This document shows positions 15,820 to 63,660 of a stretch of DNA of 64,000 nt, piece after piece. The notes beneath the pieces were generated by a model. It worked only from the letters and a program-made list of their open reading frames with translations, ran no database searches and had not been told where the DNA came from. The position numbers were made by a program, and so were the translations under genes. Every line of letters starts with the position of its first letter. Within the stretch, counting starts at the first letter, position 1. The stretch is taken from NCBI GenBank assembly GCA_965261595.1, contig CBDHDG010000002.1, positions 96,001-160,000 of the forward strand, written 5' to 3'. Origin of the DNA: a bacterium (GTDB taxonomy: Bacteria > UBA8248 > JACPRG01 > G963555815).

Positions 15820-16506
15820 ATGAGCGATCTTCCCAATATCGACATTTATCACGAATATCACTGACCGTGGGCTTACATGGCCTCGGCGAGGCTGAAGGCG
15901 ATCTTCCCTGAGTTCAAGGACCGGCTCACCATCCACTGGCGGGCGTTTCCACTGGATGTGATCAACGGCCGGCCCCTTCCCCGTCACATCGTGGACCAGG
16001 AGTGGCCGCACGTCGCCAACGAGGAGCCCCTGTGCGCGTTTCGCCCGTGGGACAACATCGGCTTCCCCGATACGAGCATTTTGGCTTACGAGATATACGA
16101 TTGCGCTTATGCCCAGGACCCAGTGAAGGCCTTCGACCTCGATTACCGGATCCGGCGGGCGTTTTATTACGAAAGCCGGTGGATCCATCTCCGGAATACG
16201 CTGCTGGAGATCGGCGGCGAGGCGGGCCTCGAGATGGACCGGCTGACCGAAAACTTCGACACCGGCCGTTACAAGGCCCGGGTGATGCTCGACTGCAAGG
16301 AGGCCCTGCGGAAGCGCGATGAAGAAGGCAAGTCGATGACGAGCCCGACCCTCATCCTGCCCAACGGCGAGTTCTACTACAACCCCTTCGCGACCGAGAA
16401 GACCTTCAACGAAGACAAGGTGATGATCGTTCTCAAGCAGCCCGAAAAGACGGGAGAGGACGCATTGGAGGGGTACCGGGAGATCCTGCGGGGGGTGTTG
16501 GGATAG
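15820..16506 (+). CDS. DsbA/FrnE-like thioredoxin-fold protein, predicted selenoprotein (Sec15, TGA 15862-15864)
   Basis: AAGGAG RBS and ATG 15820; IDIYHEYH-U-PWAY at the CPW position; in frame with ORF 15877-16506; cis-Pro-like TSPT; SECIS-like hairpin. Confidence 0.85.
15870..15899 (+). promoter_or_regulatory. SECIS-like hairpin
   Basis: GGCCTC-GGC-GAGGCT upper stem-loop, loop 20 nt after the UGA; CTT/AAG lower stem. Confidence 0.65.
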
Positions 16507-16560
16507 AGTCAGTATGGACCGCCCCTGGGTTATTGGACACTCGGGTGAGGGTATTCGACC

Positions 16561-17469
16561 TCATGCGGCCTCCGCAACTTGAGCGAGTTTTTCCTGCCTT
16601 GCCTGGGCCGGCGTTCGGTAGCCGTAGCCCTCGAGAATCCAATGATGGTTGTACAGGTTCTTGAACTCAAGCAGCGCCCACCGCAGTTCCTCTACGGTGG
16701 CGAAAGAGCGCACCCACAGGAGATTCTCCTTCAAGATGCGGATAAACCACTCACAGTAGCCATTTCCCTCGGGCGCCCGCACGAAGCTGGGCGAACTGGT
16801 CATGCCCAGGTAGGCGATCTCCCGCTGAAAGTCATCGGACAGATAGGCGGGGCCGTGGTCGTGACGAACTTTAAGCCCCTCGGCGACGTCCGCCTCCAAG
16901 CCGGCGAAGCGCTCGGCGACCCCCTGCCGGATCGGCTCCAGGGCCTCGAAGCGGTTGCCGCTCTTGGCCGCATGGATCCCCACGCAGTCCACCGAGCAGT
17001 GATCCACCGCCACGAACACCGAGGCCATCCCCTCCTCGGTGGTCACCGTCGTCGTCATGTCCGTGCCCCACATTCGGTCGGGCCGCTCGGTGCGGATGGT
17101 CCCGTTGTGGGCCTTGGGACCTCGGGGTTTGCCCACCCGGTGGGGGGCCTGAAGCCCCGCCTCCCGCATCAGGCGACGCACCCGCTCCTTGCTGGTGCGG
17201 ATGCCCGCGAAGCGCAGCCTCGCCCACACCTTGCGGTAGCCCTCGCCATGGAAGGGAGAGTCCTCCAGGACCTGCCGGATGTGGCCGAGGAGTTCCGCAT
17301 CGGTGCACGGGCCCACAGGGCCGCGCTTATTGGGCGTGGGGCGTTCATGAACGGGGACCGCCTCTCGCCGCCGTTGCGCGTAGACCGTGGAGCGCGCCAA
17401 GCCCCAAAGGGCGCACACCCGCTTCAGGCCGTAGGCTCTGCCCGTGGAGGTGAAGCGGGCCTGACTCAT
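16561..17469 (-). CDS. IS3-family transposase OrfB (DDE)
   Basis: GYRKVW, WGTDMT, VRHDHG, GNGYCE. Confidence 0.9.
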   Translation of the reverse strand: MSQARFTSTGRAYGLKRVCALWGLARSTVYAQRRREAVPVHERPTPNKRGPVGPCTDAELLGHIRQVLEDSPFHGEGYRKVWARLRFAGIRTSKERVRRLMREAGLQAPHRVGKPRGPKAHNGTIRTERPDRMWGTDMTTTVTTEEGMASVFVAVDHCSVDCVGIHAAKSGNRFEALEPIRQGVAERFAGLEADVAEGLKVRHDHGPAYLSDDFQREIAYLGMTSSPSFVRAPEGNGYCEWFIRILKENLLWVRSFATVEELRWALLEFKNLYNHHWILEGYGYRTPAQARQEKLAQVAEAA

Positions 17470-17852
17470 CGCCTCCACCTCCTGCCGGCTAAAGGGCGGC
17501 CGGCCTCCAGGCGGTCGATCTTCTCCCGCAGGACCTCGCCCTCCATCGTGAGTTCGCCCACCTTGGCCTTGAGCCGGGCGTTCTCCTCGTCCCGCTCATC
17601 CGCCGGGCGGGCTTTGAGCGCCGCCTCGCCCCCGCGAAGGAACGCCTCGCGCCAGGCGGAAAGCCGAGCCGCTGTCGTGCCCAACTCGCGGCAGAGCGTC
17701 TCCAGGCTCTCGCCCCGCAAAAGACGCAGGACCGCCTCCCGCTTGCGCTGGCAGGAGAACCGACCCCGCTCACTGCGATGCCCTGGGGCCTTGGCTCCGT
17801 TCGCCCTGCGGGCGCCCTCCGCCAAAGCCCCCTCTTGCTTTTGTTCGTTCAT
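17466..17852 (-). CDS. IS3-family transposase OrfA (HTH + leucine zipper)
   Basis: KREAVLRLLRGESLETLCRELG; ENARLKAKVGELTME; ATGA overlap with orfB. Confidence 0.85.
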   Translation of the reverse strand: MNEQKQEGALAEGARRANGAKAPGHRSERGRFSCQRKREAVLRLLRGESLETLCRELGTTAARLSAWREAFLRGGEAALKARPADERDEENARLKAKVGELTMEGEVLREKIDRLEAGRPLAGRRWRR

Positions 17853-18034
17853 CGCGACACCCCTTTCTCCATGAATCATGGATCAATCGAGTGTCCAACA
17901 AAACCCTAGAGCGGGGGAAGTAGACCGATGGCGCCCGGGCCTCGGGAGGCTTCAGGCTCTCCGGCGGCAAATAGGATGCGCAAAGGCCGTATAATGATTG
18001 ACCTCTGGAGACGGAAGCCCGGGGGTGAGATTGC

Positions 18035-19180
18035 ATGAGAATTCTTAGGCTGAAATTGGAGAATTGGCGGAACTTCACGAAGGTAGATGTTCGTCTACAG
18101 CAACGTGTTTTTATCGCGGGGCCGAACGCCTCGGGTAAGTCGAATTTTCTTGACGCCCTACGTTTCCTCCAAGACATCTCTACCACTGGCGGGGGACTGC
18201 AAAATGCGGTGCAAGATCGGGGCGGGGTTTCTAAAATTCGATGTTTGGCGGCCCGGAGGCATCCAGACGTTGTGATCGAAATTGAGTTGGGTGTTGATCC
18301 TGAGAATCCGGAATGGACTTACAGGATCGCGTTTAAGCAGGACAATCAACGCCGTCCCATTTTGAAAAAAGAGCTTGTTCTCCGCAACGGAAATATGGTT
18401 CTTGAAAGGCCGGACAGTAAAGATCAGGATGACGCAGAGCGACTCACGCAAACCCATCTGGAGCAAGTCAGCGCCAATTTCGATTTCAGGGAAGTTGCGG
18501 ATTTCTTCGGTTCCGTGAGGTATCTTCACGTTATCCCACATCTGATACGTGATTCTGAGTTGCATCCTCCAAGGAAAGACAAAGCAAGAGATCCCTTCGG
18601 GGGTGATTTCCTGGAGCGGATTGCTCGGACCCCAGTAAGGACTCGGGAGTCTCGCCTGGAAAAAATGCGACAGGCGTTGACGATTGCTGTTCCCCAGTTG
18701 AAAGAACTGCAGCTCGAACGTGATAAGTATGACGGAACGCCCCACCTTTCCGGACGGTCAGAACACTGGCGCCCCAAAGCCGGCTGGCAAAGGGAAGACC
18801 AATTTTCTGATGGAACCTTACGTTTGATGGGTTTACTTTGGGCCGTTCTGGACGGTTCTGGCCCGCTTCTCCTTGAGGAGCCGGAACTTTCTCTACATCC
18901 TGAAGTCGTTCGCTTCATTCCCCTAATGTTGTGGCGTGTCAGCCGGAGAAAGCAGCGTCAGATCTTCATCTCGACACATTCACCGGATTTACTTGGAGAC
19001 AAAGGCATCGCGCCCGATGAAACATTGCTGCTCCACCCCTCAGGAGAAGGCACTCAAGTGGAGTTGGCAAGAAACAATCAAGCAATCACGGCATTGTTGG
19101 AAGAAAGATTATCCATAGCGGATGCCGTGCTTCCAGCAGTGGCGCCAAAGCGCGCCGATCAGTTGGCTCTTTTTGATTAA
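18035..19180 (+). CDS. ABC-type AAA ATPase (AAA_15/AAA_21-like)
   Basis: Walker A GPNASGKS, signature FSDG, Walker B LLLEEPE, STHS; no TM segment; visibly lower GC. Confidence 0.88.
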   Translation: MRILRLKLENWRNFTKVDVRLQQRVFIAGPNASGKSNFLDALRFLQDISTTGGGLQNAVQDRGGVSKIRCLAARRHPDVVIEIELGVDPENPEWTYRIAFKQDNQRRPILKKELVLRNGNMVLERPDSKDQDDAERLTQTHLEQVSANFDFREVADFFGSVRYLHVIPHLIRDSELHPPRKDKARDPFGGDFLERIARTPVRTRESRLEKMRQALTIAVPQLKELQLERDKYDGTPHLSGRSEHWRPKAGWQREDQFSDGTLRLMGLLWAVLDGSGPLLLEEPELSLHPEVVRFIPLMLWRVSRRKQRQIFISTHSPDLLGDKGIAPDETLLLHPSGEGTQVELARNNQAITALLEERLSIADAVLPAVAPKRADQLALFD

Positions 19181-19184
19181 TTTG

Positions 19185-19781
19185 ATGAACCTAGGGATTA
19201 ACGTGGCGACTGAGGGATATCCGGACGAAATCGCCGTTCGTTCTCTTTGTCGCACCGTAGGCCTTGGGATCGCAACAATTTATAACTTGCGCGGGAAGTC
19301 CACGTTGGACAAAAACCTGCGCGGTTACAACAATGCGGCGAAAAGTTGGTACTGGTTCGTCCTGCGGGACCTGGACCATGACGCCGAGTGCGGCGCCGCG
19401 TTGCGTCACCAATTAATTCCCTCACCGTCGCAATTCATGCATCTACGGATCGTGGTCCGAGAAATCGAGTCTTGGCTATTGGCGGATTCGGCGAGGTTCG
19501 CGCAATTTCTCGGCGTGGCTCGGTCGAAGTTTCCTGAGGATCCCGAATCGTTGGATTATCCGAAGCGGGAATTCATTCGTTTGGCCTCTGGTTCCTCTAA
19601 ACGGAATATTCGTGATGATATGGTTCCTCGCCCCGGGAGCGGCGCCGCACAAGGTCCAGGTTATGGGGCGCGTCTTGCGGAATTTATCGAAAGTCACTGG
19701 AGACCGGACGTGGCGGCGCAGTCGTCCGACAGCCTAAGACGCTGTCTGGGAAGGCTGACGGAATGGGTCGCTGATGTTTGA
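19185..19781 (+). CDS. TOPRIM-like protein (DUF4276-like)
   Basis: VATEG..DE, VLRDLD, REIESWLLAD; starts 4 nt after the ATPase stop. Confidence 0.65.
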   Translation: MNLGINVATEGYPDEIAVRSLCRTVGLGIATIYNLRGKSTLDKNLRGYNNAAKSWYWFVLRDLDHDAECGAALRHQLIPSPSQFMHLRIVVREIESWLLADSARFAQFLGVARSKFPEDPESLDYPKREFIRLASGSSKRNIRDDMVPRPGSGAAQGPGYGARLAEFIESHWRPDVAAQSSDSLRRCLGRLTEWVADV

Positions 19782-19945
19782 TGAAGATGTAAGGTCAACT
19801 AAAAGATTCGATCTATGAAGTGAACTACTTGCGGAAGGGGGCGACCCTGAGGGACCGGCCCCCTGCGCGAAATGAAAGATTTCGAAGGGGTTTGGGGGAC
19901 AGACCCAACCGGGTCGGGTTTTCAAATATCCCTCAAGAACTTTTC

Positions 19946-21112
19946 CTAAGAGCAGCAGGTCTCCGCCCCCGGGGCTTCCGTTCCCGCGCGGTCCAGGATT
20001 CCGAAGAACGGCGCGTAGTGGGGATGTCTCAGGACGTTGGTGGTCTTCGAGCAGATCTCCAGGGCCTCGCCGCGAGGATACGCGTGGCCGTCGTCGTCCT
20101 CCGCGCGAAGGAACGGCCCGCCCAAAAGGGCGAACCGGCCTGTCCAGACGCACGGGCCCGAGTCGGGAAGCACGGGTTCCGTCCCGTCCACGGGCGCGTC
20201 GTCCTTTTGCGGAACCGCCCCCTCGAAGAGGCCGCGGTATCCGGGAAGGCCCAGGACGCGGGCCGTTTTCCCGTCCACCGTCCGGCGGACCCCCCGCGCG
20301 TACTCATTGCCCAGCTCATCCCGGGCAGCGGAGAACGGTCCCTGGAAAACAACTTCCACGTCTCCGGATCCCTCCTCCTTCCCATTCTCGATCTTGTATC
20401 CGAGGAGCGTCACCGAGATGAAGTGGATGCCGTCGATGGACTGCCAGGGGGCGAACTTCTCCTGCGTCAGCCCCCGAAACCCGGCCCGGTTGAGGCCGTC
20501 CAGGTAATCTCTCATGGGCAGCGCGCCGGAAAGGCAGGCGCCCCACTTGTCGGGGTCGTGGATGAGGTAGTTCGGCACGGATTGGTCGGCGACGATGTCG
20601 GAGATGCAGAACCGGCCCCCGGGGCGAAGGACCCGGAAGATCTCGCCGAACACCCGGTTCTTATCGGGCGTGAGGTTGATGACGCAGTTCGAGATGACCA
20701 GATCGACCGTCCCGTCCTCGACCGGCAGGTCGTCGGCCAGACCCTTTCTGAAATCGACCCGCACCTCATCGTGCCCCAGGTTTTCCGCAACCGCCGGGGC
20801 GTATTTTTGGGCGACGGCGAGCATTTCGTCCGTCATGTCCACGCCGATGACCCGGCCCGAGCTCCCCGTCCGGCGCAGGGCGTCGAAGCAGTCAATGCCG
20901 CCTCCGGACCCGATGTCGACCACCGTCTCTCCCGATCGGATGTGGCCGATGCCGGCCGGGGAGCCGCATCCGTAAGAGATCTTCATGACTTCCTCGGGGA
21001 TGAACGATTTCAAATCGGCCGCGTCGTACCCCGTCGGACAGCAGAGGGCCTCTTCCCGCCGGCCCGCCGCCGAGGAATATCTTTGCCGGACGATTTCTTC
21101 CGTGGTCGCCAT
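19946..21112 (-). CDS. ArsM-like SAM-dependent methyltransferase with C-terminal extension
   Basis: LCCP, SYGCGSP, DIGSGGGID, GVDMT, ISNCVINL, WGACLSGA, terminal CC. Confidence 0.82.
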   Translation of the reverse strand: MATTEEIVRQRYSSAAGRREEALCCPTGYDAADLKSFIPEEVMKISYGCGSPAGIGHIRSGETVVDIGSGGGIDCFDALRRTGSSGRVIGVDMTDEMLAVAQKYAPAVAENLGHDEVRVDFRKGLADDLPVEDGTVDLVISNCVINLTPDKNRVFGEIFRVLRPGGRFCISDIVADQSVPNYLIHDPDKWGACLSGALPMRDYLDGLNRAGFRGLTQEKFAPWQSIDGIHFISVTLLGYKIENGKEEGSGDVEVVFQGPFSAARDELGNEYARGVRRTVDGKTARVLGLPGYRGLFEGAVPQKDDAPVDGTEPVLPDSGPCVWTGRFALLGGPFLRAEDDDGHAYPRGEALEICSKTTNVLRHPHYAPFFGILDRAGTEAPGAETCCS

Positions 21113-21257
21113 GCTTGATTCCTTTCCCCCGCCGGACTGAAAATGTCCTTGTATCTTTATTAAGCGTTCACAGCTTTTAAATCAAGATGGGCGGGGAGAT
21201 GAGGAAAGGCGGAGACATGACGAGTCCGAAACGCGGAACGGACCGGAGGAGGCGTCA

Positions 21258-31154: not shown

Positions 31155-33050
31155 ATGGTCAAGCAAACGGGCCTGATTGGGACAACTCAGGGACAGTCCG
31201 CCTCTCGGCCCTCATTCCATAAAAACAGTTGGGCCGTTCTCATCGGGATCGATGAATACCCCGAAAAAGCACCGGGACTCGGACCGCTCAACTGTGCCGT
31301 GAATGACGTCGTGGCGGTGCAAAATATCTTGCTCATGCTCGGCTTTCCAAGCCAACAGATCTATCTCCTCAGCAATCAAGAAGCAACAAAGCGGGGAATC
31401 GAAGAGGTCATCGTCGACGAACTTGAAGGGAAGGTGGGCCCCACCGATCAAGTGGTCGTTTTCTTCGCCGGGCACGGGACAACTCAATCGACCAAATCCC
31501 ACAACAAAAAGGAGCCCGAAAAGGAAGGTTACCTCCTTCCCGTAGATTGTGATCCGACGCGACTATACTCGAGCTCCATCTCAATGCGGAGATTGCGGGA
31601 GATGGCCCAGCGGGTCGGGGCGAAACATTTCCTGTATCTTGTGGAGGCCTGCTACAGTGGTTTAGCGATTTACAAAACAAGAAGTGTCACGAAATCAGAT
31701 CTCCTTGAGGACCTCGTCGCCGAAGAATCCATTCAAATCCTCACCGCCGGCCGAGAAGGAGATCAGGTGATTGAGGTCGGACAACACGGTCTCTTCACTC
31801 ATATTCTTCTCGATGCCCTTCGGGGTGCGGCGGACTTGAGGGGATGGAATCGGCTTCCACTGGATCACTTGGCCCATTACATGGCCTCCCGGGTTTATGC
31901 GGAATCCGACAAAAGGATGCTCCCCCAACACGGGAACCTCAGCGGGGGTGGCCAGTTCATCTTCGAATTATCACCAACAAATTGCCCTCTATTCAAATCC
32001 GGCCTGACAAGGATCTCTTCGACGAAGCCGCCGAAGAAAATCCATGATCAATCCATCCCCGTTGCGCCGTTAATCGACAATAGGCCCCCGGGACCTCGAA
32101 TTCGCAAATTCGCCGTCAACGGCACGGTTTCGATCCAGAGCGAGTTGAAGGGGGATCTCTATCTGGATAACAAGGAGCTTAGGATTCGCATCGAACCCAC
32201 CGAGAGGGTGGACATCAGCGATCTCCCGGTCGGATGGCACGAGATTGTGGTTCGTGGGGGAGGTGTCAGCGCTTCTGAGAGTGTCAAGCTATTGGAAAAT
32301 GAAGTCGTAGAAGTTTTGTTGAAACAATCTCTACCTGAAAACATTATCGATGAAAAAGATCGCGCCCCGATGGTGCTTGTCCCCGCGGGGGAATTTTTGA
32401 TGGGAAGCGATAAGCTTGACTGGAATGTCAAGAAAAACGAGCGCCCCCACCGCCTGATTCACCTGGATGGTTTTTATATCAACAAGTATCCTGTGACGAA
32501 CAGGCAGTATGTGAAATCTGTCAATGCCACAAAGCACAGGAAACCCCGTTTTTGGCGGGACCCTCAGGTGAACGGCCCCGATCAACCCGTCATCGGCGTG
32601 ACTTGGACCGATGCACGCAGTTACTCCGAGTGGGCGGGGAAGCGTCTATGTACGGAGGCTGAGTGGGAGAAGGCGGCCCGCGGGACGGACGGCCGTTTAT
32701 ATCCTTGAGGGAATGTCTGGGATCCCGCCAAGCTCATTTGGCGCAAAAACAGCCATGGCCGGCCGCATCCGGTGCGACGGAGCGATCTCACCCACCGCAG
32801 TCCCTACAACGTTGTCGATATGGTGGGGAACGTCATGGAGTGGTGCCAAGACTTCTACAGCCTTGATTATTACCCCAATGCTCCGGAGCGGAATCCGAAA
32901 GGACCGGAAGGGGGCTCTTGGCGCGTTTTGCGGGGCGGAGATTGTTCCATGGAAGATCCCAACCAATTCCGGGTCGCGAACCGGGAATCCGCCTTGGCGG
33001 ATTCCAAGGTCACCCTTGTCGGGTTTCGTTGCGCGAAGTCAGTCCCATAA
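31155..33050 (+). pseudogene. Caspase-like + FGE-sulfatase (SUMF1) domain protein interrupted by an in-frame TGA at 32706-32708
   Basis: FAGHG, EACYSG, VPAGEFLMGS, TEAEWEKAARG, YP*GN (conserved Trp position), DMVGNVMEW, VLRGG, GFRCA. Confidence 0.8.
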
Positions 33051-33194: not shown

Positions 33195-33477
33195 GCAAGA
33201 GCATAAGGTCAGATTTGACAGTCTAACATTTTACAGAGATCCCGCAAGGTTTGAGAAAGATGAAAGCGATCAACAATTTCATTTTATAACCAAGCCGAAT
33301 TTCTCACCAACGTTAGAGCCCGAACGGGGTAGGTCGATTGAACCGGTTGGCTTTCAATCATTGACCCAACGGACGGGCGCCGACCAAGTTCGAGGATTGT
33401 CTTCCCCAGCCTCCCCCGCTCTAGGGTTTTGTTGGACACTCGATTGATCCATGATTCATGGAGAAAGGGGTGTCGCG

Positions 33478-33864
33478 ATGAACGAACAAAAGCAAGAGGG
33501 GGCTTTGGCGGAGGGCGCCCGCAGGGCGAACGGAGCCAAGGCCCCAGGGCATCGCAGTGAGCGGGGTCGGTTCTCCTGCCAGCGCAAGCGGGAGGCGGTC
33601 CTGCGTCTTTTGCGGGGCGAGAGCCTGGAGACGCTCTGCCGCGAGTTGGGCACGACAGCGGCTCGGCTTTCCGCCTGGCGCGAGGCGTTCCTTCGCGGGG
33701 GCGAGGCGGCGCTCAAAGCCCGCCCGGCGGATGAGCGGGCCGAGGAGAACGCCCGGCTCAAGGCCAAGGTGGGCGAACTCACGATGGAGGGCGAGGTCCT
33801 GCGGGAGAAGATCGACCGCCTGGAGGCCGGCCGCCCTTTAGCCGGCAGGAGGTGGAGGCGATGA
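33478..33864 (+). CDS. IS3-family transposase OrfA
   Basis: As copy A, with one amino acid difference (D/A). Confidence 0.85.
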   Translation: MNEQKQEGALAEGARRANGAKAPGHRSERGRFSCQRKREAVLRLLRGESLETLCRELGTTAARLSAWREAFLRGGEAALKARPADERAEENARLKAKVGELTMEGEVLREKIDRLEAGRPLAGRRWRR

Positions 33865-34769
33865 GTCAGGCCCGCTTCACCTCCACGGGCAGAGCCTACG
33901 GCCTGAAGCGGGTGTGCGCCCTTTGGGGCTTGGCGCGCTCCACGGTCTACGCGCAACGGCGGCGAGAGGCGGTCCCCGTTCATGAACGCCCCACGCCCAA
34001 TAAGCGCGGCCCTGTGGGCCCGTGCACCGATGCGGAACTCCTCGGCCACATCCGGCAGGTCCTGGAGGACTCTCCCTTCCATGGCGAGGGCTACCGCAAG
34101 GTGTGGGCGAGGCTGCGCTTCGCGGGCATCCGCACCAGCAAGGAGCGGGTGCGTCGCCTGATGCGGGAGGCGGGGCTTCAGGCCCCCCACCGGGTGGGCA
34201 AACCCCGAGGTCCCAAGGCCCACAACGGGACCATCCGCACCGAGCGGCCCGACCGAGTGTGGGGCACGGACATGACGACGACGGTGACCACCGAGGAGGG
34301 GATGGCCTCGGTGTTCGTGGCGGTGGATCACTGCTCGGTGGACTGCGTGGGGATCCATGCGGCCAAGAGCGGCAACCGCTTCGAGGCCCTGGAGCCGATC
34401 CGGCAGGGGGTCGCCGAGCGCTTCGCCGGCTTGGAGGCGGACGTCGCCGAGGGGCTTAAAGTTCGTCACGACCACGGCCCCGCCTATCTGTCCGATGACT
34501 TTCAGCGGGAGATCGCCTACCTGGGCATGACCAGTTCGCCCAGCTTCGTGCGGGCGCCCGAGGGAAATGGCTACTGTGAGTGGTTCATCCGCATCTTGAA
34601 GGAGAATCTCCTGTGGGTGCGCTCTTTCGCCACCGTAGAGGAACTGCGGTGGGCGCTGCTTGAGTTCAAGAACCTGTACAACCATCATTGGATTCTCGAG
34701 GGCTACGGCTACCGAACGCCGGCCCAGGCAAGGCAGGAAAAACTCGCTCAAGTTGCGGAGGCCGCATGA
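33861..34769 (+). CDS. IS3-family transposase OrfB
   Basis: DDE motifs; GGAGG RBS and ATGA overlap with orfA. Confidence 0.9.
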   Translation: MSQARFTSTGRAYGLKRVCALWGLARSTVYAQRRREAVPVHERPTPNKRGPVGPCTDAELLGHIRQVLEDSPFHGEGYRKVWARLRFAGIRTSKERVRRLMREAGLQAPHRVGKPRGPKAHNGTIRTERPDRVWGTDMTTTVTTEEGMASVFVAVDHCSVDCVGIHAAKSGNRFEALEPIRQGVAERFAGLEADVAEGLKVRHDHGPAYLSDDFQREIAYLGMTSSPSFVRAPEGNGYCEWFIRILKENLLWVRSFATVEELRWALLEFKNLYNHHWILEGYGYRTPAQARQEKLAQVAEAA

Positions 34770-35058
34770 GGTCGAATACCCTCACCCGAGTGTCCAATAA
34801 CCCAGGGGCGGTCCAAGCCTCTCGATTGCGCGGATGGTTCTGGAAAGAGACCCGGTAAATTGTGGTGCTTTCACGTCACATAGGGTGCGGTTCGGTGGGT
34901 GTTTCGTGGTAAAAATTACAGTGAAGTGGTCGGACGCTGCGGTGGTGCTGAAGGAATTCCGCAGGATCGCGCGGGGGGCCTCCTGAATCCGGGGGGGGGA
35001 GGGCGGGGGCGTTGTGTTTCAGGCCGTCCCAACCACATCGCATTGCTCTGGAGGGGTG

Positions 35059-35874: not shown

Positions 35875-37569
35875 CCTGGATATCTCACAAAGAAAGAGAG
35901 CCAAGCCGGTTTTTTTCGGGTAAACTCTTTTTGATCAACGGGTTGCCCGAAGAAAGGAGACCGACTTGACTCGCACACAGTGTATCGCAGAACAGATGGA
36001 ATTCCAAGGGTTGGGTTCTCGGCGTGTGATCGCCACTTCCAACGGCGGGGCGATCACCTCTGATGCGGGCGGTCTTTTGCTACGCGACACCGAGGGGCGG
36101 GTGAAGCTGATCGCAGGCTTCGCGGCCTGTTTTGAGGACGGTCGGGACGCGAGGCGGGTGGAAGATGAGTTGTGGGCGTTGTTGCGGCAGCGGGTGTACG
36201 CGCTGGCGCTTGGCTATGAGGACGTCAATGACCACGAGCGGCTTCGCTTTGACCCGATGCTCCAGATCCTCTCGGGCAAGCTGGAGGCCACGCGGCGCAA
36301 GGGGGGTCCGGCCCTTGCGGGCAAGAGCACGCTGAACCGTTTGGAGCGTCTTGCGGGCGATGGCGATGAGCGCTACCACAAGATCGCCTACCGAGGCGAG
36401 GCGATCGACCGGCTGTTGGTGGAGGGCTTCCTTCGGTCGCAGAGGCGGGCGCCGGGTCGGATCGTTTTGGACATCGACGCCACCGACGACCCGGTGCACG
36501 GCTGTCAGGAGGGGCGTTTCTTCCACGGCTATCACGGTCATTACTGCTACCTTCCGCTTTACATCTTCTGCGGGGATTTCCTTTTGTGCGCTCGGCTTCG
36601 GCCCTCCAATATCGACGCCTCCTCGGGGGTGGTGGAGGAGTTGGAGCGGATCGTTGCCCAGATTCGGGCACGCTGGCCGCAGGTGTCGATCCTGCTTCGG
36701 GCGGATTCGGACTTCTCGCGCGAGTGGATCATGGCCTGGTGCGAGGCGCAGGGGGTGGATTACGTGTTCGGCCTGGCCAAGACCTCCCGGCTGCAGGAAG
36801 CGGTGAAGGACGAGCTGGCCGAAGCGAAGGCGCGTCATCAGAGCACGGGGAAGGGGGCGCGGTTATTCCGGTCGTTTCCTCACCGGACGCTTACATCCTG
36901 GAGCCGGGTGCGGCGGGTGGTTGCCAAGGCCGAGCACCTGGCCAAGGGCGCCAATCCGCGCTTCATCGTGACTTCGCTGGACGAGGAGGCGATCGACGCG
37001 AAGCCTCTGTACGAGCGCATCTACTGCGCCCGGGGGACGATGGAGAACCGGCTCAAGGAGCAGCAGCTCGACCTGTACGCGGACCGGACGTCGTGCACGC
37101 GGATGCGCTCCAATCAGTTGCGGCTCTACCTGTCGGCGGTGGCCTATGAACTGATGCATGCGTTGCGTCGGCTAGGCCTTCGGGGGACGGCGTTTGCAAA
37201 GGCAACGTGTGGAACGGTGCGGACGCGGCTGCTGAAGATCGGGGCGCAGGTTCGGGTGAGCGTGCGGCGAGTGCACGTGGCCCTTGCGACGGGTTATCCG
37301 TACATGAATGTGTTCTTCCACGCCTGGCGGAACCTGCGCGCGGGGCCGGAGGGAGAGCCCGCCGTCTAAGACAGATTGCAAAATGAACGCGCAGGGAGTC
37401 GAGGCAAACGTGCGTGCGGAGCCGAGCCAAATCGGCCAAAAAGCCCCTCTCACGGGTCAACTCCAACCACCCACCGGCCCTGGTTCCACCGTAAAAGCGA
37501 CAGACAGGAAAAAACACTCCAATTCACACCCGATAATCCATCCGCCGAGTGGGGGGTGAGAAATGCGGG
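35875..37569 (+). mobile_element. IS1380-family insertion sequence
   Basis: IRs CCTGGATATCTCAC / CCCGCATTTCTCAC; CTAG duplicated at 35871-74 and 37570-73. Confidence 0.92.
35966..37369 (+). CDS. IS1380-family transposase
   Basis: TSDAG, GYEDVND, LDIDATDD, RADS, YCARGTMENRLKE. Confidence 0.92.
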   Translation: MTRTQCIAEQMEFQGLGSRRVIATSNGGAITSDAGGLLLRDTEGRVKLIAGFAACFEDGRDARRVEDELWALLRQRVYALALGYEDVNDHERLRFDPMLQILSGKLEATRRKGGPALAGKSTLNRLERLAGDGDERYHKIAYRGEAIDRLLVEGFLRSQRRAPGRIVLDIDATDDPVHGCQEGRFFHGYHGHYCYLPLYIFCGDFLLCARLRPSNIDASSGVVEELERIVAQIRARWPQVSILLRADSDFSREWIMAWCEAQGVDYVFGLAKTSRLQEAVKDELAEAKARHQSTGKGARLFRSFPHRTLTSWSRVRRVVAKAEHLAKGANPRFIVTSLDEEAIDAKPLYERIYCARGTMENRLKEQQLDLYADRTSCTRMRSNQLRLYLSAVAYELMHALRRLGLRGTAFAKATCGTVRTRLLKIGAQVRVSVRRVHVALATGYPYMNVFFHAWRNLRAGPEGEPAV

Positions 37570-37665: not shown

Positions 37666-37756
37666 CCGTACGCAGAAGGTCTATCTCCTAACACCCCCTG
37701 GAGTTGACCCGGTTTGATGGACACCTGATGATTTGGGGGTAAAGGAGGTGTTCACG

Positions 37757-38071
37757 ATGCCACAGACTCACCCACGCTATCCAATGGAGTTCCGCTGCCA
37801 GATGGTAGAGTTGGTCCGGGCGGGACGCACGCCCGAGGCGCTGGCGCACGAGTTCGAGCCCTCGGCGCAGACGATCCGCACCTGGGCCCATCAAGCCGAC
37901 GTTGACGAGGGGCGTCGCAAAGACGGGCTCACGAGCGATGAGCGGGAGGAGTTGCGCCGACTTCGCCGCGAGAACCGACAGCTCCGCCAGGAGCGGGAGA
38001 TCTTAGCAAAAGCCGCGGCCTGGTTTGCTCGGGATACCGATTCGATCCCGTCCGGATCTACGGGTTCGTGA
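37757..38071 (+). CDS. IS3-family transposase OrfA
   Basis: YPMEFR..MVELVRAG; ELRRLRRENRQLRQEREILAKAAAWFA. Confidence 0.88.
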   Translation: MPQTHPRYPMEFRCQMVELVRAGRTPEALAHEFEPSAQTIRTWAHQADVDEGRRKDGLTSDEREELRRLRRENRQLRQEREILAKAAAWFARDTDSIPSGSTGS

Positions 38072-38916
38072 GGGCGAACCAGGCCATGTATCGGACCGCC
38101 ACCATGTGCCGGGTGCTGGGCGTCTCCTCCAGCGGCTACTACGCGTGGCGCAGGCGCGCGCCGTGTGCCCGCTCGTGTGCCGATCGGGCGCTCACCAAAC
38201 GCATTCAGGCGATCCACGAGCGTTCTCGGGGGACTTACGGCGTGCCGCGCGTCCATGCCGAGTTGGAGGCTGAGGGAGTGCGTGTGGGCCGCAAGCGCGT
38301 CGCCAGGCTGATGCGTGGGGCGGGACTTGCGGGCGTCAGTCGGCGCAAGGGAGCGCGCACGACGCAGCGCCGGCAGGAGGCGCGGCCGGCCCCTGATCTG
38401 GTGGACCGCAACTTCACGGCCGAGGCCCCCGACCGGCTGTGGGTGGCCGACATCACCTACGTTCCGACATGGGCGGGGTTTTTGTATCTGGCCGTGGCGC
38501 TCGATGCGTTCAGCCGGCGCATCGTGGGGTGGTCGATGGCCACACACCTGCGGGCCGAGTTGGTGCTCGACGCGCTCGACATGGCGCTGTATAAGCGCCG
38601 TCCCCGGGCCGTCATCCACCACTCCGACCAGGGCACGCAGTACACCTCGGTCGCCTTTGGGCAGCGCTGCCGGCAGGCGGGCGGGCGTCCCTCCATGGGT
38701 TCGGTCGGGGACTGCTACGACAACGCGCTGTGTGAGAGTTTTTTCGCCACGCTGGAGTGCGATCTCCTCGCTCGCCACAGTTTCCGCACCCGGGCCGAGG
38801 CGCGCATGGAGGTGTTCGGGTTCATCGAGGGCTTCTACAACCCGCATCGTCGGCACTCCTCCATCGACAACCTGTCACCCGTTAACTACGAAAGGAGACA
38901 ACAACGCACACCCTGA
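38068..38916 (+). CDS. IS3-family transposase OrfB
   Basis: WVADITY, HHSDQGTQY, DNALCESFF, YNPHRRHS. Confidence 0.92.
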   Translation: MRANQAMYRTATMCRVLGVSSSGYYAWRRRAPCARSCADRALTKRIQAIHERSRGTYGVPRVHAELEAEGVRVGRKRVARLMRGAGLAGVSRRKGARTTQRRQEARPAPDLVDRNFTAEAPDRLWVADITYVPTWAGFLYLAVALDAFSRRIVGWSMATHLRAELVLDALDMALYKRRPRAVIHHSDQGTQYTSVAFGQRCRQAGGRPSMGSVGDCYDNALCESFFATLECDLLARHSFRTRAEARMEVFGFIEGFYNPHRRHSSIDNLSPVNYERRQQRTP

Positions 38917-53364: not shown

Positions 53365-53706
53365 ATGACAAAGGCGGAGTTGGTGGAGCAAGTCGCCGAA
53401 CAGATAGATCTGACGAAGAAAGAAACCGAGAGAATCGTGAATATCGTCTTCGGCTGCGTGGTCGACGCGCTTCGCCAGAGCGATAAGGTCGAGTTGAGGG
53501 GGTTCGGCAGTTTCCGGGTTCGTCACCGGGAGCCCCGCAACGGGCGAAATCCGAAGACAGGAACGACGGTCCAGATTCCGGCGAAGAAGGTGCCGTTCTT
53601 CAAGGCCGGAAAAGATCTCCGCGAATTGGTCAACGTCGCCCTCGAGCCCTTGGAGCGCGACACGGAGGCGGTTCCGGATCGATCCGTCGCGGAATCCGTT
53701 CCGTGA
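53365..53706 (+). CDS. ihfB: Integration host factor subunit beta
   Basis: MTKAEL, VELRGFGSF, GRNPKTG, PFFKAGKDLRE; follows rpsA-sppA. Confidence 0.88.
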   Translation: MTKAELVEQVAEQIDLTKKETERIVNIVFGCVVDALRQSDKVELRGFGSFRVRHREPRNGRNPKTGTTVQIPAKKVPFFKAGKDLRELVNVALEPLERDTEAVPDRSVAESVP

Positions 53707-58332: not shown

Positions 58333-59129
58333 TCACAGCAAATCGTCGAAATCCGATTCCAGCAGGAGCGCGCGGGAGATCTTGTTGTCCACGCAGAAGT
58401 GCTTGACGAGGAAGACCACCTCCAGGACCCCCTTCTCGCTCAGCCCCAGCCGGCGGACCTCCCGCATGTGGAAGTCGATCCCTAATCCGACTTGGCGGTC
58501 ATGGACGCCGCCAGCGCCAGGATCTCCTTGGTGAGGCGGTCGAGCTTTCGGCCCGTGAACGCGGTCTTCACGTAACTCCAGTGGTCGCCCAGGTAGCCGG
58601 GGTCGTTCGCCATCACGCGGTGGACCCCCGGGACGAAATCCATCTCGTAGAAGCCCTTGATGTCGTCGAAGACCTCTTTGACCTTCCCGGCGGCCTTGGC
58701 CTCATCCACCAGGGAAACAAGGGGTTTGCGGATGCCTGGGTCGTTGAAGGGCAGGGGGACCCACACGCCGTCCGCCACAGCGTTGATCCCATGGACGGTC
58801 CCGACCGTGTAGGCCAGCTCGTACCAGATGTCGTCGTCCTTCAGGCCTTGCTGCTTCCCGGCAGCGGTGTGCGAGGCCGTTCAGTAGGGGCAGACGTTGA
58901 TGGCGCTGACCGCCGAGGCGATGAGCTCCTTCGTCGTCCGGGGGAGCGCGCCCGGGGAGAGCGCCCGCCGGGTGCACCGCCCCTGGCCGGCCCGGAACTC
59001 CGGGTAGTGGCTCAGGACACGAACCATCTTCGGGACGAAATCGATGTTGAAGAACTCCTTGACGTGCTGGAACTGCTTTTGCGTCTCTTCGGGAAATTCG
59101 GATTCGTCCCGAATGCGGACGGTCTCCAT
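58333..59129 (-). CDS. Tandem-domain AhpD/CMD-like protein, predicted selenoprotein (CPYU, TGA 58883-58881), with a 1-nt frameshift near 58483
   Basis: GAGGAGG RBS; KELIASAVSAINVCPY-U-TASH reads in frame into ORF 58778-58482; second domain KEILALAASMTAKSD[Y]GIDFH is completed in a shifted frame. Confidence 0.82.
58844..58878 (-). promoter_or_regulatory. SECIS-like hairpin
   Basis: GCTGC-CGGGAA-GCAGC upper stem, GGCCT/AGGCC lower stem, loop 20 nt after the UGA. Confidence 0.65.
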
Positions 59130-59353: not shown

Positions 59354-59376
59354 GTAGGGCGGGCATCTTGCCCGCC
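59354..59376 (+). repeat. GTAG-type REP palindrome
   Basis: GTAG-GGCGGGCA-TCT-TGCCCGCC. Confidence 0.6.
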
Positions 59377-59448
59377 TTCTCCGCAATTCGTGAAGGGTCA
59401 GCTTATTTTCGAGACGTACCATGAGCTTCCGGGAACCGCGCCTTGATT

Positions 59449-60168
59449 TCAGCGGGCCGCGGACAAAGACCGGAGCGCTTCAGGCGCCTCCCGGAAATGC
59501 CGGATCAGGACGTCCGGCGCCGCTCTCGCAAGCCGCGCTTCGCTGTTGTAGCTCATGGGCCAATCGACGGCGATCGTCATGACGCCCGTCTTTTGGGCCT
59601 CTCGAATGTCTTTTTCCATGTGCCCCGCGTACGCGCAAGTCTCGATGGGAATTTCATTCTCGGACAGGATATGCAGAATCCCGTGGGCCTTTGTTCTGCC
59701 GATGTGGTCGGGATTGAAGACCGTCGTCCACTCCCGCGCCGCGAGAGAGACGCGGGATTCTGGGAAAAATTTCCCCAACCCCAGACGCTCGATCTCCGCG
59801 CGGACGAATTCTCCTCCTTTCGATGTAATGATGGAGCAGGTCACGCCGTCCCGACGCAACTCTTCGAGCACCTCGGCGGCGCCCTCACACAGCTTCCCCT
59901 TCGGCTCGCCCTTCGTGGCGCGGACCAGCTCCGCCCGCAGCACCTCCCGGTCGTAACCCGGCATGAATTCCGGAATGATGAACTCGTCCAGCGTCCCCTC
60001 GGTGACGTCGCGAAAGTGATCGAACGTGATTTCGCTCAGGCCGTGCAGGACCAGGACCTTATTCGTGATCGAAAACGCGACGCGCACGTCGTCGTAAAGG
60101 ATCCCGGGAAAGCTCAGGATGAGGTGATCGATGGGCCGGGCGGACGCGGCGTCCCGTGATGCCTCCAT
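59449..60168 (-). CDS. HAD-superfamily protein with degenerate catalytic motifs
   Basis: AAGGAG RBS; LILSFPGILYD, EGAAEVLEEL..G..CSIITSK, YAGHMEKDIREA..GV.TIAV. Confidence 0.7.
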   Translation of the reverse strand: MEASRDAASARPIDHLILSFPGILYDDVRVAFSITNKVLVLHGLSEITFDHFRDVTEGTLDEFIIPEFMPGYDREVLRAELVRATKGEPKGKLCEGAAEVLEELRRDGVTCSIITSKGGEFVRAEIERLGLGKFFPESRVSLAAREWTTVFNPDHIGRTKAHGILHILSENEIPIETCAYAGHMEKDIREAQKTGVMTIAVDWPMSYNSEARLARAAPDVLIRHFREAPEALRSLSAAR

Positions 60169-60254
60169 GCTGTCCGCTCCTTTTCGGGACCGATGGGCCC
60201 GGTCTTCTCCGGCCCCGGACCATCGCCGGGAACGGGGCCGCGGTGTGAGGGGGT

Positions 60255-60854
60255 TCATGAAGTCCCGGGCGTCTCTCCGATGCGGACGCCTTCGAGCCCG
60301 AGCATCCGGGCTTTGGTCGAGACGCCGCCGGGCGCCGAGAATCCTCTCAGGTCCCCCCGGGACCCGATGACCCGGTGTCACGGAACGGCGATGGGAAGCC
60401 GGTTTTTGGCCATGACGACGCCCACCGCGCGGGCGGCCCCGGGCGAGCCGGCCGCGGTCGCCACCTGGCCGTACGTCCGGACCCGTCCCCAACCGATTTT
60501 CCGGGTCACGCGCGTCACCCGCCGGGAGAAGGGAGAAAGGTCCGAGAGGTCGAGGTCGAAGCTCAGCGTGACCGGTTTGCCTTCAAAGTAATCTTCGACC
60601 GATTGGATGACCCGTCGAAGAAAGGGGTTGGGGGGATTGCTCAACCGGGCATCCAAATCCCTCAACTCGGCCTCGACTTGTCCCCGGCTGTCGAGATGGA
60701 GGATCAGGCGGCGGAGACCTCGTTGGGTGGCGGCGGCGCCTGCCCAACCGAAGGCCGTCCGAAAAGCGGCGCCTTCGAGTCCGGAAGGAGGTTGGGGCCC
60801 CGGACCGGCTTTCGCATTTCGAGGGGGCTGATTGCGGCCGTTCGAAGCGGTCAT
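60255..60854 (-). CDS. ogt: Methylated-DNA--protein-cysteine methyltransferase, predicted selenoprotein (PUHRV, TGA 60380-60378)
   Basis: [75 protein letters not shown]. Confidence 0.88.
60347..60367 (-). promoter_or_regulatory. SECIS-like hairpin
   Basis: TCGGGTCCC-GGG-GGGACCTGA, 9-bp stem, loop 19 nt after the UGA. Confidence 0.7.
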
Positions 60855-61149
60855 CGATTTCTCCTTCACCCATAGGTCTTGTGCTTGCTACGCTGAAAGC
60901 GTACAGTATATAGTATCTTCGCGAAAGATAGTCTCCTGTCTGGCATGTCGAGTGGAGTTGGTGGTTCGCCCAGAAAGCGGCGGCGGATTGCGCGGATTAC
61001 GCCGGCGTTTCATTTCAAATCGGCCGTCCGTTTGTTTGAGGCGGGTTCGGTCCGTTGGTTTATGCGGACGCATGCAAGGCGCTGAGGTTTCACCGAGATC
61101 GCCGGAGAATCAGTCGGCCCGCGGCGCTTGAAAGGGAGAATGGATCTCC

Positions 61150-62409
61150 GTGAGACGAACACTTGAGGACATCGATCCGGAAATCGCCCGCGTTATCGAC
61201 CTTGAGCAGACCCGGCAGGAAGAAGGTCTCGAGCTCATCGCGTCGGAGAACTTCACAAGCGCGGCGGTGATGGAGGTCCAGGGGTCGGTCCTGACGAACA
61301 AGTACGCCGAAGGGCTGCCCGGCCGCCGGTATTACGGGGGCTGTGAGCATGTAGACACGGCCGAGAACCTTGCGCGCGAACGGGTCAAGGCCCTGTTCGG
61401 CGCCGCCCATGCCAACGTTCAACCTCATTCGGGGACGCAGGCGGTGACGGCCGGATACCTGGCTTTTATCCGTCCGGGCGACACCATCCTCGGCATGAAC
61501 CTGGCCCACGGAGGCCACCTGACCCACGGAAGTCCCGTCAGTATTTCCGGGGGCCTGTTCAACGTTGTCGCCTACGGCGTGGACCCGAAGACCGAGCGGA
61601 TCGACTTCGACGACGTTCGCTCCAAGGCGCGGGAACACCGTCCGGCCATGATCGTCGTCGGGGCGAGCGCCTACCCGCGCGTGATCGAGTTCGATCGGTT
61701 CCGGGAGATCGCCGATGAGGTGGGCGCGAAGGTCATGGTCGACATGGCCCATATCGCCGGCCTGATTGCGGCCGGAGCTCACCCCAATCCTGTTCCCCAT
61801 GCCGACGTTGTCGCCGCCACGACGCACAAGACGTTGCGCGGACCGCGCGGCGGGTTTGTGCTGACCAACGATGAGGAGACCGCGAAGGCGCTGAACAAGA
61901 AAGTCTTTCCGTACCTTCAGGGAGGCCCTTTGATGCACGTCATCGCGGCCAAGGCGGTGGCTTTCAAAGAGGCGGCGACGGAGGCGTTCCGGGACTATCA
62001 GCGGCAGATCGTGCGCAATGCCGCGGCGCTGGCCGACGCCCTGCTTTCGAGCGGAACCCCGCTCATCTCGGGGGGAACGGACAACCATCTCATGCTCGTC
62101 GATTTGCGCAAGAGTCCGGTGGACGGGAAGACCGCCCAGCTCGCCCTGGAAGCGGCCGGGATCACGGCGAACCGGAACGCCGTGCCGTTTGACGAGCGCT
62201 CCCCCTTCGTGGCCAGCGGGGTCCGGATCGGGACGCCCGCCGTGACGACCCGGGGAATGCGGGAAGAGGAGATGCGCCGGATCGGCCGGTGGATCTCGGA
62301 GATTTTGGGCGACGTGGAGAACACCGCCTTGCAGGCCAAGATCCGCGAGGACGTCCGGGAGCTCTGCGGAAGGTTTCCCCTCTATGCGGGAAGCCCGGCC
62401 GCGGCCTGA
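61150..62409 (+). CDS. glyA: Serine hydroxymethyltransferase
   Basis: [36 protein letters not shown]. Confidence 0.97.
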
Positions 62410-62432
62410 GCCCTCCACGGGAGGTTTTTTTC

Positions 62433-62957
62433 ATGAAATGTCCATCGTGCGGCTCGACGGGAACGAAGGTCATCGACTCGCGCTTGACCAAGGACGGCAA
62501 CGCCATCCGCCGCCGCCGCGAATGTGAGAGCTGCGAGCGGCGCTTCACGACGTATGAGCGCCTGGAAGAGGTCTTTCCGCTTCTGGTGAAAAAGGACGGC
62601 CGGCGCGAGCCGTTCGAACGCGGCAAAGTCCTGGCCGGAATCCAGAAAGCGCTGGAGAAGCGCCCGGTGAGCGCGGATGTGCAGGAGGCGATGGTCGACC
62701 GGGTCGGGCGGTACATCCTCGAATCGGGGGAGAAAGAGATCCCCAGCGGGGTGATCGGCGAGCGGGTCATGGCCGCGCTCCGGGAAGTGGACCATGTGGC
62801 GTACGTGCGCTTCGCGTCCGTTTACAGGTCATTCAAGGATCTGGACGACTTCATGGTTCAACTGAAGGAGTTGTTGGCGGAGCATGCACACGGAAACGAC
62901 GCGGTGTCGGCGGACCTCGCGGCCGCGCGTTTCGAGGGGTCCTCTCCCGGCCCTTGA
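62433..62957 (+). CDS. nrdR: Transcriptional repressor NrdR
   Basis: [30 protein letters not shown] cone, [10 protein letters not shown]. Confidence 0.96.
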
Positions 62958-63114
62958 GATCGCCCCCTCTCCCTCCCCCCCCCCGGGTCAACCGAAAATT
63001 TACGATTTCCAGACATAACCGGGACATCAGGAATCCGCGCGTGTGGAAGAATGCCTTGCCGTCGGCCGGATTCCGTTCCATGTTGAGCGTGGCGCATGTC
63101 CTGGAGGAATTTCC

Positions 63115-63660
63115 ATGAAGACCTCAAGTCGAAGACTCTGGTGGGTGGTCGGGATCATCGGCCTTGCCCTGGCCTTGTGGTCCCTGTTCCCGACCTGGGT
63201 GCGGGTTTCCGCCGAATCTCTGATTGGCCGGCCGGCGCCGCCCATCCGGAGCAAGACGTGGATCAACTCCGCCCCCATCGAATGGTCCTCGCTTCGGGGA
63301 AAGGTCGTCCTGGTCGAGATGTGGACCTTCGGGTGAATCAACTGCCGGAATGAGATTCCGCAGTTGGCGGTCTGGCATAAGCAATACGCGAAACGCGGTT
63401 TGGTGATCATCGGCAATCACGCCCCCGAGTTCAGCCACGAGAAGAAGCTCGAAAACGTCCGGCGCGCGGTCAAGAGGCTGGGCGTGGAGTATCCGGTCTG
63501 CCTCGATAACGACTTCGCGAACTGGAAGGCCTCCCGGAACCGGTACTGGCCGACCCGGTACCTTGTCGATAAGAAGGGGGTCATCCGCTCCTTCCGGATC
63601 GGCGAGGGGGATCACGCGGCGACGGAGGCGATGATCGAGAGGCTGTTGGCGGAGAGTTGA
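63115..63660 (+). CDS. Membrane-anchored TlpA/DipZ-like thioredoxin, predicted selenoprotein (UxxC, TGA 63334-63336)
   Basis: GGAGG RBS; TM segment; WINS, LRGKVVLVEMWTFG-U-INC, HAPEF, DNDF, WPTRYLVDKKG, GEG. Confidence 0.9.
63339..63366 (+). promoter_or_regulatory. SECIS-like hairpin
   Basis: CAACTG-C-CGGAAT-GAG-ATTCCG-CAGTTG; 12 perfect base pairs with one bulge. Confidence 0.75.

Follow-up and report, generated by a model that had tools for sequence, protein, structure and literature searches.

Four probable selenoprotein genes within 64 kb of the genome of an uncultivated UBA8248 bacterium

A 64,000-nucleotide stretch of a bacterial genome (GCA_965261595.1; contig CBDHDG010000002.1, here C2, positions 96001 to 160000; "the window" below) contains four genes in which an in-frame TGA occupies the position of a catalytic cysteine, and we estimate at about 93% the probability that these four TGAs are genuine selenocysteine (Sec) codons. 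The proteins that would gain Sec (U) are a cytoplasmic FrnE-like protein with a DsbA fold (motif UPWA), an AhpD-like peroxidase-related protein (CPYU), the suicide repair enzyme MGMT/Ogt (O6-alkylguanine-DNA alkyltransferase; PUHRV), and a membrane-anchored DipZ/ResA-like thiol:disulfide oxidoreductase with a thioredoxin fold (Trx-like; UINC). SelB carrying Sec-tRNA(Sec) would bind an in-frame hairpin 15 to 20 nt behind each UGA and would deliver Sec there in place of termination, putting a selenol at the position of the nucleophilic Cys of homologs. We infer Sec insertion, binding of SelB to the hairpins, and the enzymatic roles from the TGAs, their conservation, the hairpins, the machinery genes, and the number of similar genes in the genome. 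The source genome, assembled as 6.17 Mb in 7 contigs with ~63% G+C, represents an uncultivated marine lineage labelled Nitrospinota/Tectomicrobia.

Four genes with TGA at a catalytic cysteine position

The four genes were found in a Pfam scan in which TGA was read as U, and in each of them the domain continued across the in-frame TGA (Table 1). The MGMT gene had been missed by a codon-usage filter and was recovered when the window was scanned for hairpins with a GGG loop. An earlier reading of the window made from the letters alone (the sequence-only reading) had described four unrelated genes with TGA at a catalytic Cys and a downstream hairpin; all four were located, and alignments with Cys homologs confirmed the positions. 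It had also given loops of GGC, CGGGAA, GGG, and GAG starting 15 to 20 nt downstream, with G within the first two loop positions. The starts were found at 20, 20, 19, and 15 nt, respectively, the G was there in all four, and the end of the span that it reported, 63366, is the final base of the fourth hairpin.

Table 1. Coordinates of the predicted selenoprotein genes of the window, their candidate Sec codons, and the hairpins behind them
Feature	Position	Strand	Details
DsbA/FrnE-like selenoprotein gene	15820..16506	+	228 aa, Sec at residue 15, motif HEYH-U-PWAY
Sec-UGA of DsbA-like gene	15862..15864	+	aligned TGA in relatives
SECIS-like hairpin UGGCCUC-GGC-GAGGCUG	15878..15894	+	7 bp, -7.1 kcal/mol, loop from 20 nt after UGA
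AhpD/CMD-like selenoprotein gene as assembled	58482..59129	-	215 aa, Sec at residue 83, motif CPY-U-TASH
Sec-UGA of AhpD-like gene	58881..58883	-	aligned CxxU codon in relatives
SECIS-like hairpin GCUGC-CGGGAA-GCAGC	58850..58865	-	5 bp, -6.6 kcal/mol, loop from 20 nt after UGA
Out-of-frame remainder of AhpD-like gene (GIDFHMREVRRLG...DDLL)	58333..58481	-	cut off by 1-nt deletion
MGMT/Ogt selenoprotein gene	60255..60854	-	199 aa, Sec at residue 159, motif VP-U-HRV
Sec-UGA of MGMT gene	60378..60380	-	aligned TGA in relatives
SECIS-like hairpin UCGGGUCCC-GGG-GGGACCUGA	60347..60367	-	9 bp, -14.5 kcal/mol, loop from 19 nt after UGA
Membrane-anchored thioredoxin-fold (DipZ C-domain/ResA-like) selenoprotein gene	63115..63660	+	181 aa, Sec at residue 74, motif WTFG-U-INC
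Sec-UGA of Trx-like gene	63334..63336	+	aligned TGA in relatives
SECIS-like hairpin CAACUGC(C)GGAAU-GAG-AUUCCGCAGUUG	63339..63366	+	12 bp with 1-nt bulge, loop from 15 nt after UGA
SECIS, selenocysteine insertion sequence.

In order to assess conservation, 51 genomes of the same class were searched in six frames with stops read through. Matches to the DsbA-like, AhpD-like, MGMT, and Trx-like genes were found in 48, 21, 50, and 43 of these genomes, and the codon aligned with the window TGA was TGA in 29 of 30, 27 of 27, 30 of 30, and 30 of 30 loci, respectively. All 27 listed AhpD-like matches contained exactly one TGA, as did the best Trx-like match in each of the 43 genomes, and the window TGAs were kept in relatives down to ~27 to 45% protein identity. 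The argument of the sequence-only reading that four independent Cys-to-TGA errors are implausible is borne out by these counts. Comparisons with published selenoproteins, here and below, refer to the accessible parts of a 2022 review (PMC9312934), of the BSepDB description (PMC13326102; 2026), and of Peng et al. 2016 (PMC5029168).

The DsbA-like protein matched Pfam DSBA over residues 7 to 162, a range that spans U15 (31.8 bits; cut-off, 25.6); a scan of NCBIfam returned no matching model. A profile built from 12 orthologs matched FrnE of Deinococcus radiodurans (5cnw; E value, 4e-10), with U opposite the first Cys of CPWC, and a Cys homolog that is 62% identical (P0016) reads CPWA. In an AlphaFold2 model (pLDDT 85.9), U15 lies between a strand (residues 6 to 11) and a helix (residues 16 to 31), the classic active-site position of the thioredoxin fold at the N-terminus of helix 1. 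The top Foldseek matches of the model were HCCA isomerase (3fz5), FrnE, and DsbM, with 3fz5 and FrnE at an E value of 2e-7 and a TM score of ~0.6. The hairpin is also conserved: a 6-bp consensus helix had no broken pair among 23 distinct orthologous sequences, and one of its six pairs was compensatory, G-C in 19 sequences and U-A in 4.

Like FrnE and the known DsbA-like selenoproteins (pfam01323, UxxC; PMC9312934), the window protein lacks a signal peptide, adopts a DsbA fold, and has its Sec in the first Cys position of CxxC. It differs from both in the second position, where Ala replaces Cys in all 12 aligned orthologs (UPWA rather than UxxC or CPWC). The protein thus lacks the CxxC dithiol that characterizes the DsbA family (PF01323) and keeps the thioredoxin fold with its inserted helical domain. 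Because the motif has a single selenol, a dithiol/disulfide exchange cycle within it is impossible. The UPWA protein might work through its lone selenol in the manner of kappa-GST or HCCA isomerase, and not as a disulfide oxidoreductase; if so, Sec would have a catalytic role that is new for the DsbA fold.

In the MGMT protein, Pfam DNA_binding_1 (96.3 bits, residues 108 to 190) spans U159, and the TIGR00589 model (ogt) scored 79.7 bits (cut-off, 46.4). U lies opposite the Cys of the PCHR active site of Mycobacterium tuberculosis OGT (4wxc), and Sec at this PCHR alkyl-acceptor position is the arrangement described for the methylated-DNA-protein-cysteine methyltransferase selenoprotein family (COG0350; PMC9312934). 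The gene is the sole MGMT match in the source genome, unlike many relatives, which also retain a longer Cys-type homolog (frames of ~350 to 360 aa without stops). A 7-bp helix was found at the same place in 23 relatives that belong to another family of the class, with 161 of 161 cells paired; two of the seven pairs changed on both sides, and the covariation score was reached by 0 of 500 shuffles, in a helix that was defined from those same sequences and in relatives that are not independent. When the helix was slid to control positions, only 25 to 52% of cells were paired.

The Trx-like protein matched Pfam AhpC-TSA (44.2 bits; cut-off, 26) and Redoxin (30.8 bits). The AhpC-TSA match covers residues 38 to 160 of a 182-aa reading of the gene, in which U is residue 75, and thus spans U. 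In NCBIfam the protein fell below every family cut-off and reached superfamily or domain models only. The C-terminal domain of M. tuberculosis DipZ (2hyx) was matched at an E value of 5e-41, with U opposite the first Cys of CINC, and the sequence W-T-F-G-U-I-N-C corresponds to the WxxxCxxC motif of TlpA/ResA/DipZ-C oxidoreductases. One N-terminal membrane helix is present. The protein therefore resembles Prx-like and thiol-disulfide isomerase-like selenoproteins (UxxC) and the DipZ C-domain in having UxxC in a thioredoxin fold of the TlpA/ResA/DipZ type behind an N-terminal membrane helix; in contrast to DipZ, it is a separate protein that lacks the DipZ membrane domain.

The AhpD-like protein scored above the cut-offs of Pfam CMD (57.2 bits, residues 50 to 101, spanning U83) and TIGR00778 (ahpD_dom, 50.1 bits). 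Its C-P-Y-U-T-A-S-H corresponds to the CxxC(U)xxxH motif of the AhpD/CMD family (PF02627, TIGR00778), and U lies opposite the second Cys of CsyC...H in 2ouw. This arrangement, CxxU and then xxxH in a CMD domain, is that of the known AhpD-like/CMD-like selenoproteins (PMC9312934), from which the window copy differs in reaching a domain-level model only, with no specific NCBIfam family, and in being frameshifted as assembled. Three of the loci in relatives are close orthologs (L054, L055, and L074), which have the CGGGAA loop in common with the window gene, and the others are family members with 27 to 32% identity. An alignment of the DNA placed a 1-nt deletion at 58482-58484 (- strand), where the window reads GATTA-GGG and L054 and L055 read GATTACGGG; DNA identity to these two loci around the deletion was 95.9% and 84.4% over 121 nt. 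The deletion creates a TAG and leaves the last 48 residues out of frame, and translation of the alternate frame past the TAG matched the C-termini of all three close orthologs.

Selenocysteine machinery and size of the selenoproteome

The genome encodes a full Sec pathway. SelA (550 bits) and SelB (390 bits) are adjacent on contig C6, and SelD (330 bits), which has an in-frame TGA of its own, is on C5; all three scored above curated cut-offs. There is one tRNA-Sec (Rfam, 72 bits, above the cut-off), with the anticodon tca according to ARAGORN. All four genes lie outside the window, as the sequence-only reading had stated for the sel genes, and searches of the genome for the components on which it had made its interpretation depend, tRNA-Sec, SelA, and SelB, found all three. 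No Rfam family matched anywhere in the 64-kb window at the gathering threshold.

A genome-wide search for TGA read-through counted at least 42 selenoprotein genes (Table 2). In the CMD/AhpD, DSBA, AhpC-TSA/Redoxin, and OsmC genes among them, one Pfam domain extends over the TGA. The count came from a codon-usage scan for TGAs flanked by coding sequence on each side, Pfam and NCBIfam searches of 60 candidates, and six-frame Pfam searches; it is a lower bound because the scan was not exhaustive and its codon-usage filter missed MGMT. BSepDB holds 57,630 selenoproteins from 16,621 species, or ~3.5 per Sec-using species (PMC13326102), and against this average the very large selenoproteome foreseen in the sequence-only reading was found. 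At 42 genes genome-wide, ~0.43 would be expected in 64 kb, and the four observed are a local excess (Poisson probability, ~0.001).

Table 2. Genes of the source genome counted as selenoprotein genes
Family	Genes with in-frame TGA	Remarks
CMD/AhpD	10	9 above Pfam cut-off, 1 below; 15 CMD matches overall
AhpC-TSA/Redoxin	9	18 matches overall; two deiodinase-like, one partial duplicate at contig end
DSBA	8	11 matches overall
OsmC	8	11 matches overall
GrdB	2	
GrdA	1	
Glutaredoxin	1	
SelD	1	
MGMT	1	
CUAEP-tail radical SAM	1	640 bits, above NCBIfam cut-off
Total	42	

Formate dehydrogenase is the commonest bacterial selenoprotein. Nevertheless, none of the 14 molybdopterin-oxidoreductase matches in the genome had a TGA, so that no formate dehydrogenase uses Sec, and no NiFe(Se) hydrogenase was found in the genome. 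The selenoproteome consists almost wholly of thiol-redox proteins, together with glycine reductase, SelD, MGMT, and the CUAEP-tail radical SAM protein. In several thiol-redox families, Sec stands in place of Cys in the majority of the members. The lineage has thus converted entire thiol-redox families from Cys to Sec and yet has no Sec in formate dehydrogenase.

Such richness has been reported before. Three GTDB UBA8248 organisms, which have 54, 50, and 48 selenoprotein genes, are among the ten richest bacteria in BSepDB (PMC13326102); the source genome has at least 42. These relatives are metagenome-assembled genomes classed as UBA8248 or 'Nitrospinota'; the carriers of the DsbA-like gene are labelled Nitrospinota, Nitrospinaceae, or Candidatus Tectomicrobia, and one of them, at locus L209, shares its isolate name with the 54-gene entry (PMC13326102). 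Peng et al. 2016, who termed genomes with at least six selenoprotein genes 'selenoprotein-rich', gave 39 genes for Syntrophobacter fumaroxidans, which was then the record (PMC5029168). AhpD-like (CxxU), DsbA-like (UxxC), methylated-DNA-protein-cysteine methyltransferase, thiol-disulfide isomerase-like (UxxC), OsmC-like, and deiodinase-like proteins are all among the selenoprotein families of the 2022 review (PMC9312934). All four families of the window are thus already known selenoprotein families and the richness of the lineage is already published (PMC9312934, PMC13326102); the novelty is modest and was overrated in the sequence-only reading. The main value of the results is the correct annotation of these genes and a few candidate families to compare with BSepDB.

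Two of these candidates, additional to the 42 genes counted, lie outside the window. The gene at C5:468577-469713 (+ strand; locus L164) encodes a protein of the MetE-like (vitamin-B12-independent methionine synthase) family in which TGA at 469327 gives the reading FHL-U-RGN; two paralogs in the genome read HLCRGN and HICRGN. The TGA is followed by an 8-bp hairpin with a GGU loop at 19 nt (-15.5 kcal/mol), and TGA was also present in four of the five closest relatives' matches, so that to judge from the sequences this is a probable selenoprotein. Pyrrolysine at an internal TAG of MetE-like paralogs was considered as well and rejected; in the two paralogs aligned, the TAG is the terminal stop within the match. 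A 91-aa protein with no clear family (C4:387616-387888, - strand; locus L171) reads DIQG-U-VEYF, has a 12-bp hairpin with a GGA loop at 20 nt, and adjoins a 44%-identical Cys paralog (387975-388226, - strand) that reads NIQG-C-IEHL. In all four genomes with the 91-aa protein, the TGA form and its Cys copy in tandem are both retained.

Hairpins and alternative explanations

Bacterial Sec decoding requires an in-frame UGA and a SECIS hairpin, for which fdhF of Escherichia coli is the paradigm and the bSECISearch consensus gives thresholds. In order to learn whether such hairpins are a general feature of the genome, 40 Sec sites picked regardless of structure were examined for a perfect stem of -5 kcal/mol or lower with G at loop position 1 or 2 and a loop start 14 to 27 nt after the UGA. 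Hairpins of this kind were found at 31 of the 40 sites, and 22 of the 40 reached -7 kcal/mol or lower, in a sample whose counts are not independent because paralogs share sequence. As controls in the same genome, 3000 ordinary Cys codons were followed by such a hairpin in 13.9% of cases, and 597 true TGA stops in 13.1%. When the requirement for G was dropped, 37 of the 40 sites had a hairpin; 36 of these 37 carried the G and 34 started 16 to 23 nt after the UGA (median, 19), compared with 59% of control hairpins carrying G and 45% starting at 14 to 24 nt. The local SECIS model drawn from the window thus holds genome-wide. As in other bacteria, the hairpin lies in the open reading frame directly behind the UGA and has a G among its first two loop nucleotides, and all four machinery genes are present. 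There is no mechanistic difference; loop starts in the source genome are tightly clustered, and many loops have merely 3 nt.

Each of the four window hairpins, taken singly, is only modestly unusual, and by our own arithmetic from the control rate three of four would occur by chance with a probability of ~0.01. Minimum free energy was compared with that of synonymous-codon shuffles for the DsbA-like, AhpD-like, and Trx-like genes, and in the Trx-like region (-16.5 kcal/mol) it was lower than expected (P = 0.007). The hairpin behavior provides a simple tested rule for the re-annotation of such genomes, in which public gene calls truncate or split these genes. A local rule (stem of at least 5 bp, loop of 3 to 6 nt with G at position 1 or 2, start at 16 to 23 nt) combined with Sec/Cys pairing might also expose families that have no curated model, namely UPWA, the MetE-like HL-U-RGN protein, and the 91-aa IQG-U protein, though we hold this only tentatively and rather doubt it.

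Events that could mimic Sec codons do occur in this assembly: there is a TGA at an invariant Trp (32706), there are TGAs at non-Cys positions elsewhere, and the AhpD-like gene has a 1-nt deletion. The four TGAs could accordingly have arisen from Cys codons through sequencing error or recent nonsense mutation, in which case the genes would be broken. However, the same codon is TGA in 27 to 30 independently assembled genomes per gene, which cannot be error, the reading frame runs on past the TGA with invariant residues before and after it, and the hairpins show compensatory changes, all of which makes this explanation extremely improbable. If the TGAs are instead taken as functional stops, shorter products would be made, such as a DsbA-like protein that starts at Met20 as in public gene calls. 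The N-terminus of the DsbA-like query (window 15820-16503), with the active site, was covered by 1 of 52 public homologs, a Cys form; most of these homologs have 208 to 209 aa, and P0008, one of five sequences read, starts at the Met directly after the TGA. Public gene calls thus appear to cut the active site off this protein. Against termination, the 14 codons upstream of the TGA are conserved, with H11, E12, Y13, and H14 invariant in 12 orthologs, and in the predicted model they encode strand beta-1 of the thioredoxin fold, so that a product started at Met20 would be without an active site. In the MGMT, AhpD-like, and Trx-like proteins, termination would strip the C-terminal 40, 132, and 107 residues, respectively, from a single domain. 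We therefore give almost no credence to termination.

It is also possible to suppose that the UGAs are read through and that the residue inserted is Cys or Trp. Sequence analysis does not see the inserted residue, and recoding of UGA to Cys was the fallback named in the sequence-only reading. However, the complete Sec pathway and hairpins that fit bacterial SECIS geometry argue for Sec, as does the presence with TGA of GrdA and GrdB, which are known obligate selenoproteins. TGA ends 597 of 999 long open reading frames in the genome and is the commonest stop, so there is no global reassignment of TGA. Insertion of Cys or Trp is thus very unlikely.

Several results weigh against reading the four TGAs as Sec codons or temper the evidence for it. 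Similar hairpins stand behind ~14% of control codons, so that a hairpin alone is weak proof, and even the TGA at 32706, which is not a Sec codon, is followed by one at -7.2 kcal/mol. The minimum free energies of the DsbA-like and AhpD-like regions were not unusual compared with synonymous-codon shuffles (P = 0.30 and 0.11, respectively). RNAalifold found no shared structure in the whole MGMT set, which included both families of the class, or in the set of Trx-like orthologs. For MGMT, the lack of a common helix is explained by subgroups that pair in registers 3 nt apart; for the Trx-like gene, the relatives' hairpins lie at the same place with different pairs, also in registers 3 nt apart, and conservation is confined to where the hairpin lies. 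The sole exception among the 30 DsbA-like loci, L024, belongs to the same genus as the source genome, and its match is without the Sec-bearing N-terminus. The relatives' loci and the paralogs are not independent, and P values are therefore overstated. The truncation of the AhpD-like gene may mark it as a pseudogene or may stem from an assembly error, the assembly was rated 5.57% contaminated so that a few of the 42 selenoprotein genes could be artefacts, and not every in-frame TGA in the genome is a Sec codon.

Other TGAs and the surroundings of the four genes

The TGA at 32706-32708 (+ strand) is within a gene with caspase and FGE-sulfatase domains (31155..33050). It was rejected as a Sec codon because the residue opposite it in 9 paralogs of the genome is the invariant Trp of YPWGN. 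FGE homologs in the class are almost all without stops. In near-identical contigs of two other studies, which over an 801-base stretch differ at 2 and 5 positions, the codon at 32706 is TGG (X16) and TTG (X2), and the depth of the sequencing run that reads TGA, from which the DNA of the window may stem, was 4.3. This TGA is a nonsense change or a low-coverage error. Premature stops are also present in two further FGE paralogs (C6:1229371 and C4:692177), and one more paralog (C6:242307) appears degenerate. In-frame TGAs at non-Cys positions were also seen in a xanthine-dehydrogenase-like gene (Arg in the paralog), a GntR regulator, and a transposase (C5:483280, C4:559262, and C1:208318); these are pseudogenes or base errors. 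Further read-through candidates, among them Fer2/amidohydrolase, L21/L27, proB/nadD, the GroEL tail, and the IHF tail at 53704, were rejected as adjacent genes in the same frame or a normal stop.

The AhpD-like, MGMT, and Trx-like genes lie within ~5 kb, as they do in two relatives. The DsbA-like gene is 47 kb from the Trx-like gene, with a segment flanked by insertion sequences (IS) and other genes between them; in relatives from the larger family of the class (for example, G013:C1:4172332-4176271 and G022:C1:2384063-2388189), these two genes are ~3 kb apart. The segment is bounded by two 1404-bp IS copies (16515-17918 and 33412-34815) that are 100% identical, inverted, and IS3-like, with orfA/orfB and rve domains, the first of which begins 9 nt past the stop of the DsbA-like gene. 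Between them are 15.5 kb of lower G+C content (0.56 to 0.59 in parts) with an AbiEii-like ATPase, caspase-domain genes, and the broken FGE gene, and this segment looks like a composite transposon. Further transposase genes follow just beyond the second copy, at 35966-37366 (DDE_Tnp_1_4) and 37733-38913 (an IS3-type HTH_Tnp_1 and rve pair), and the stretch around this copy is an insertion hot spot.

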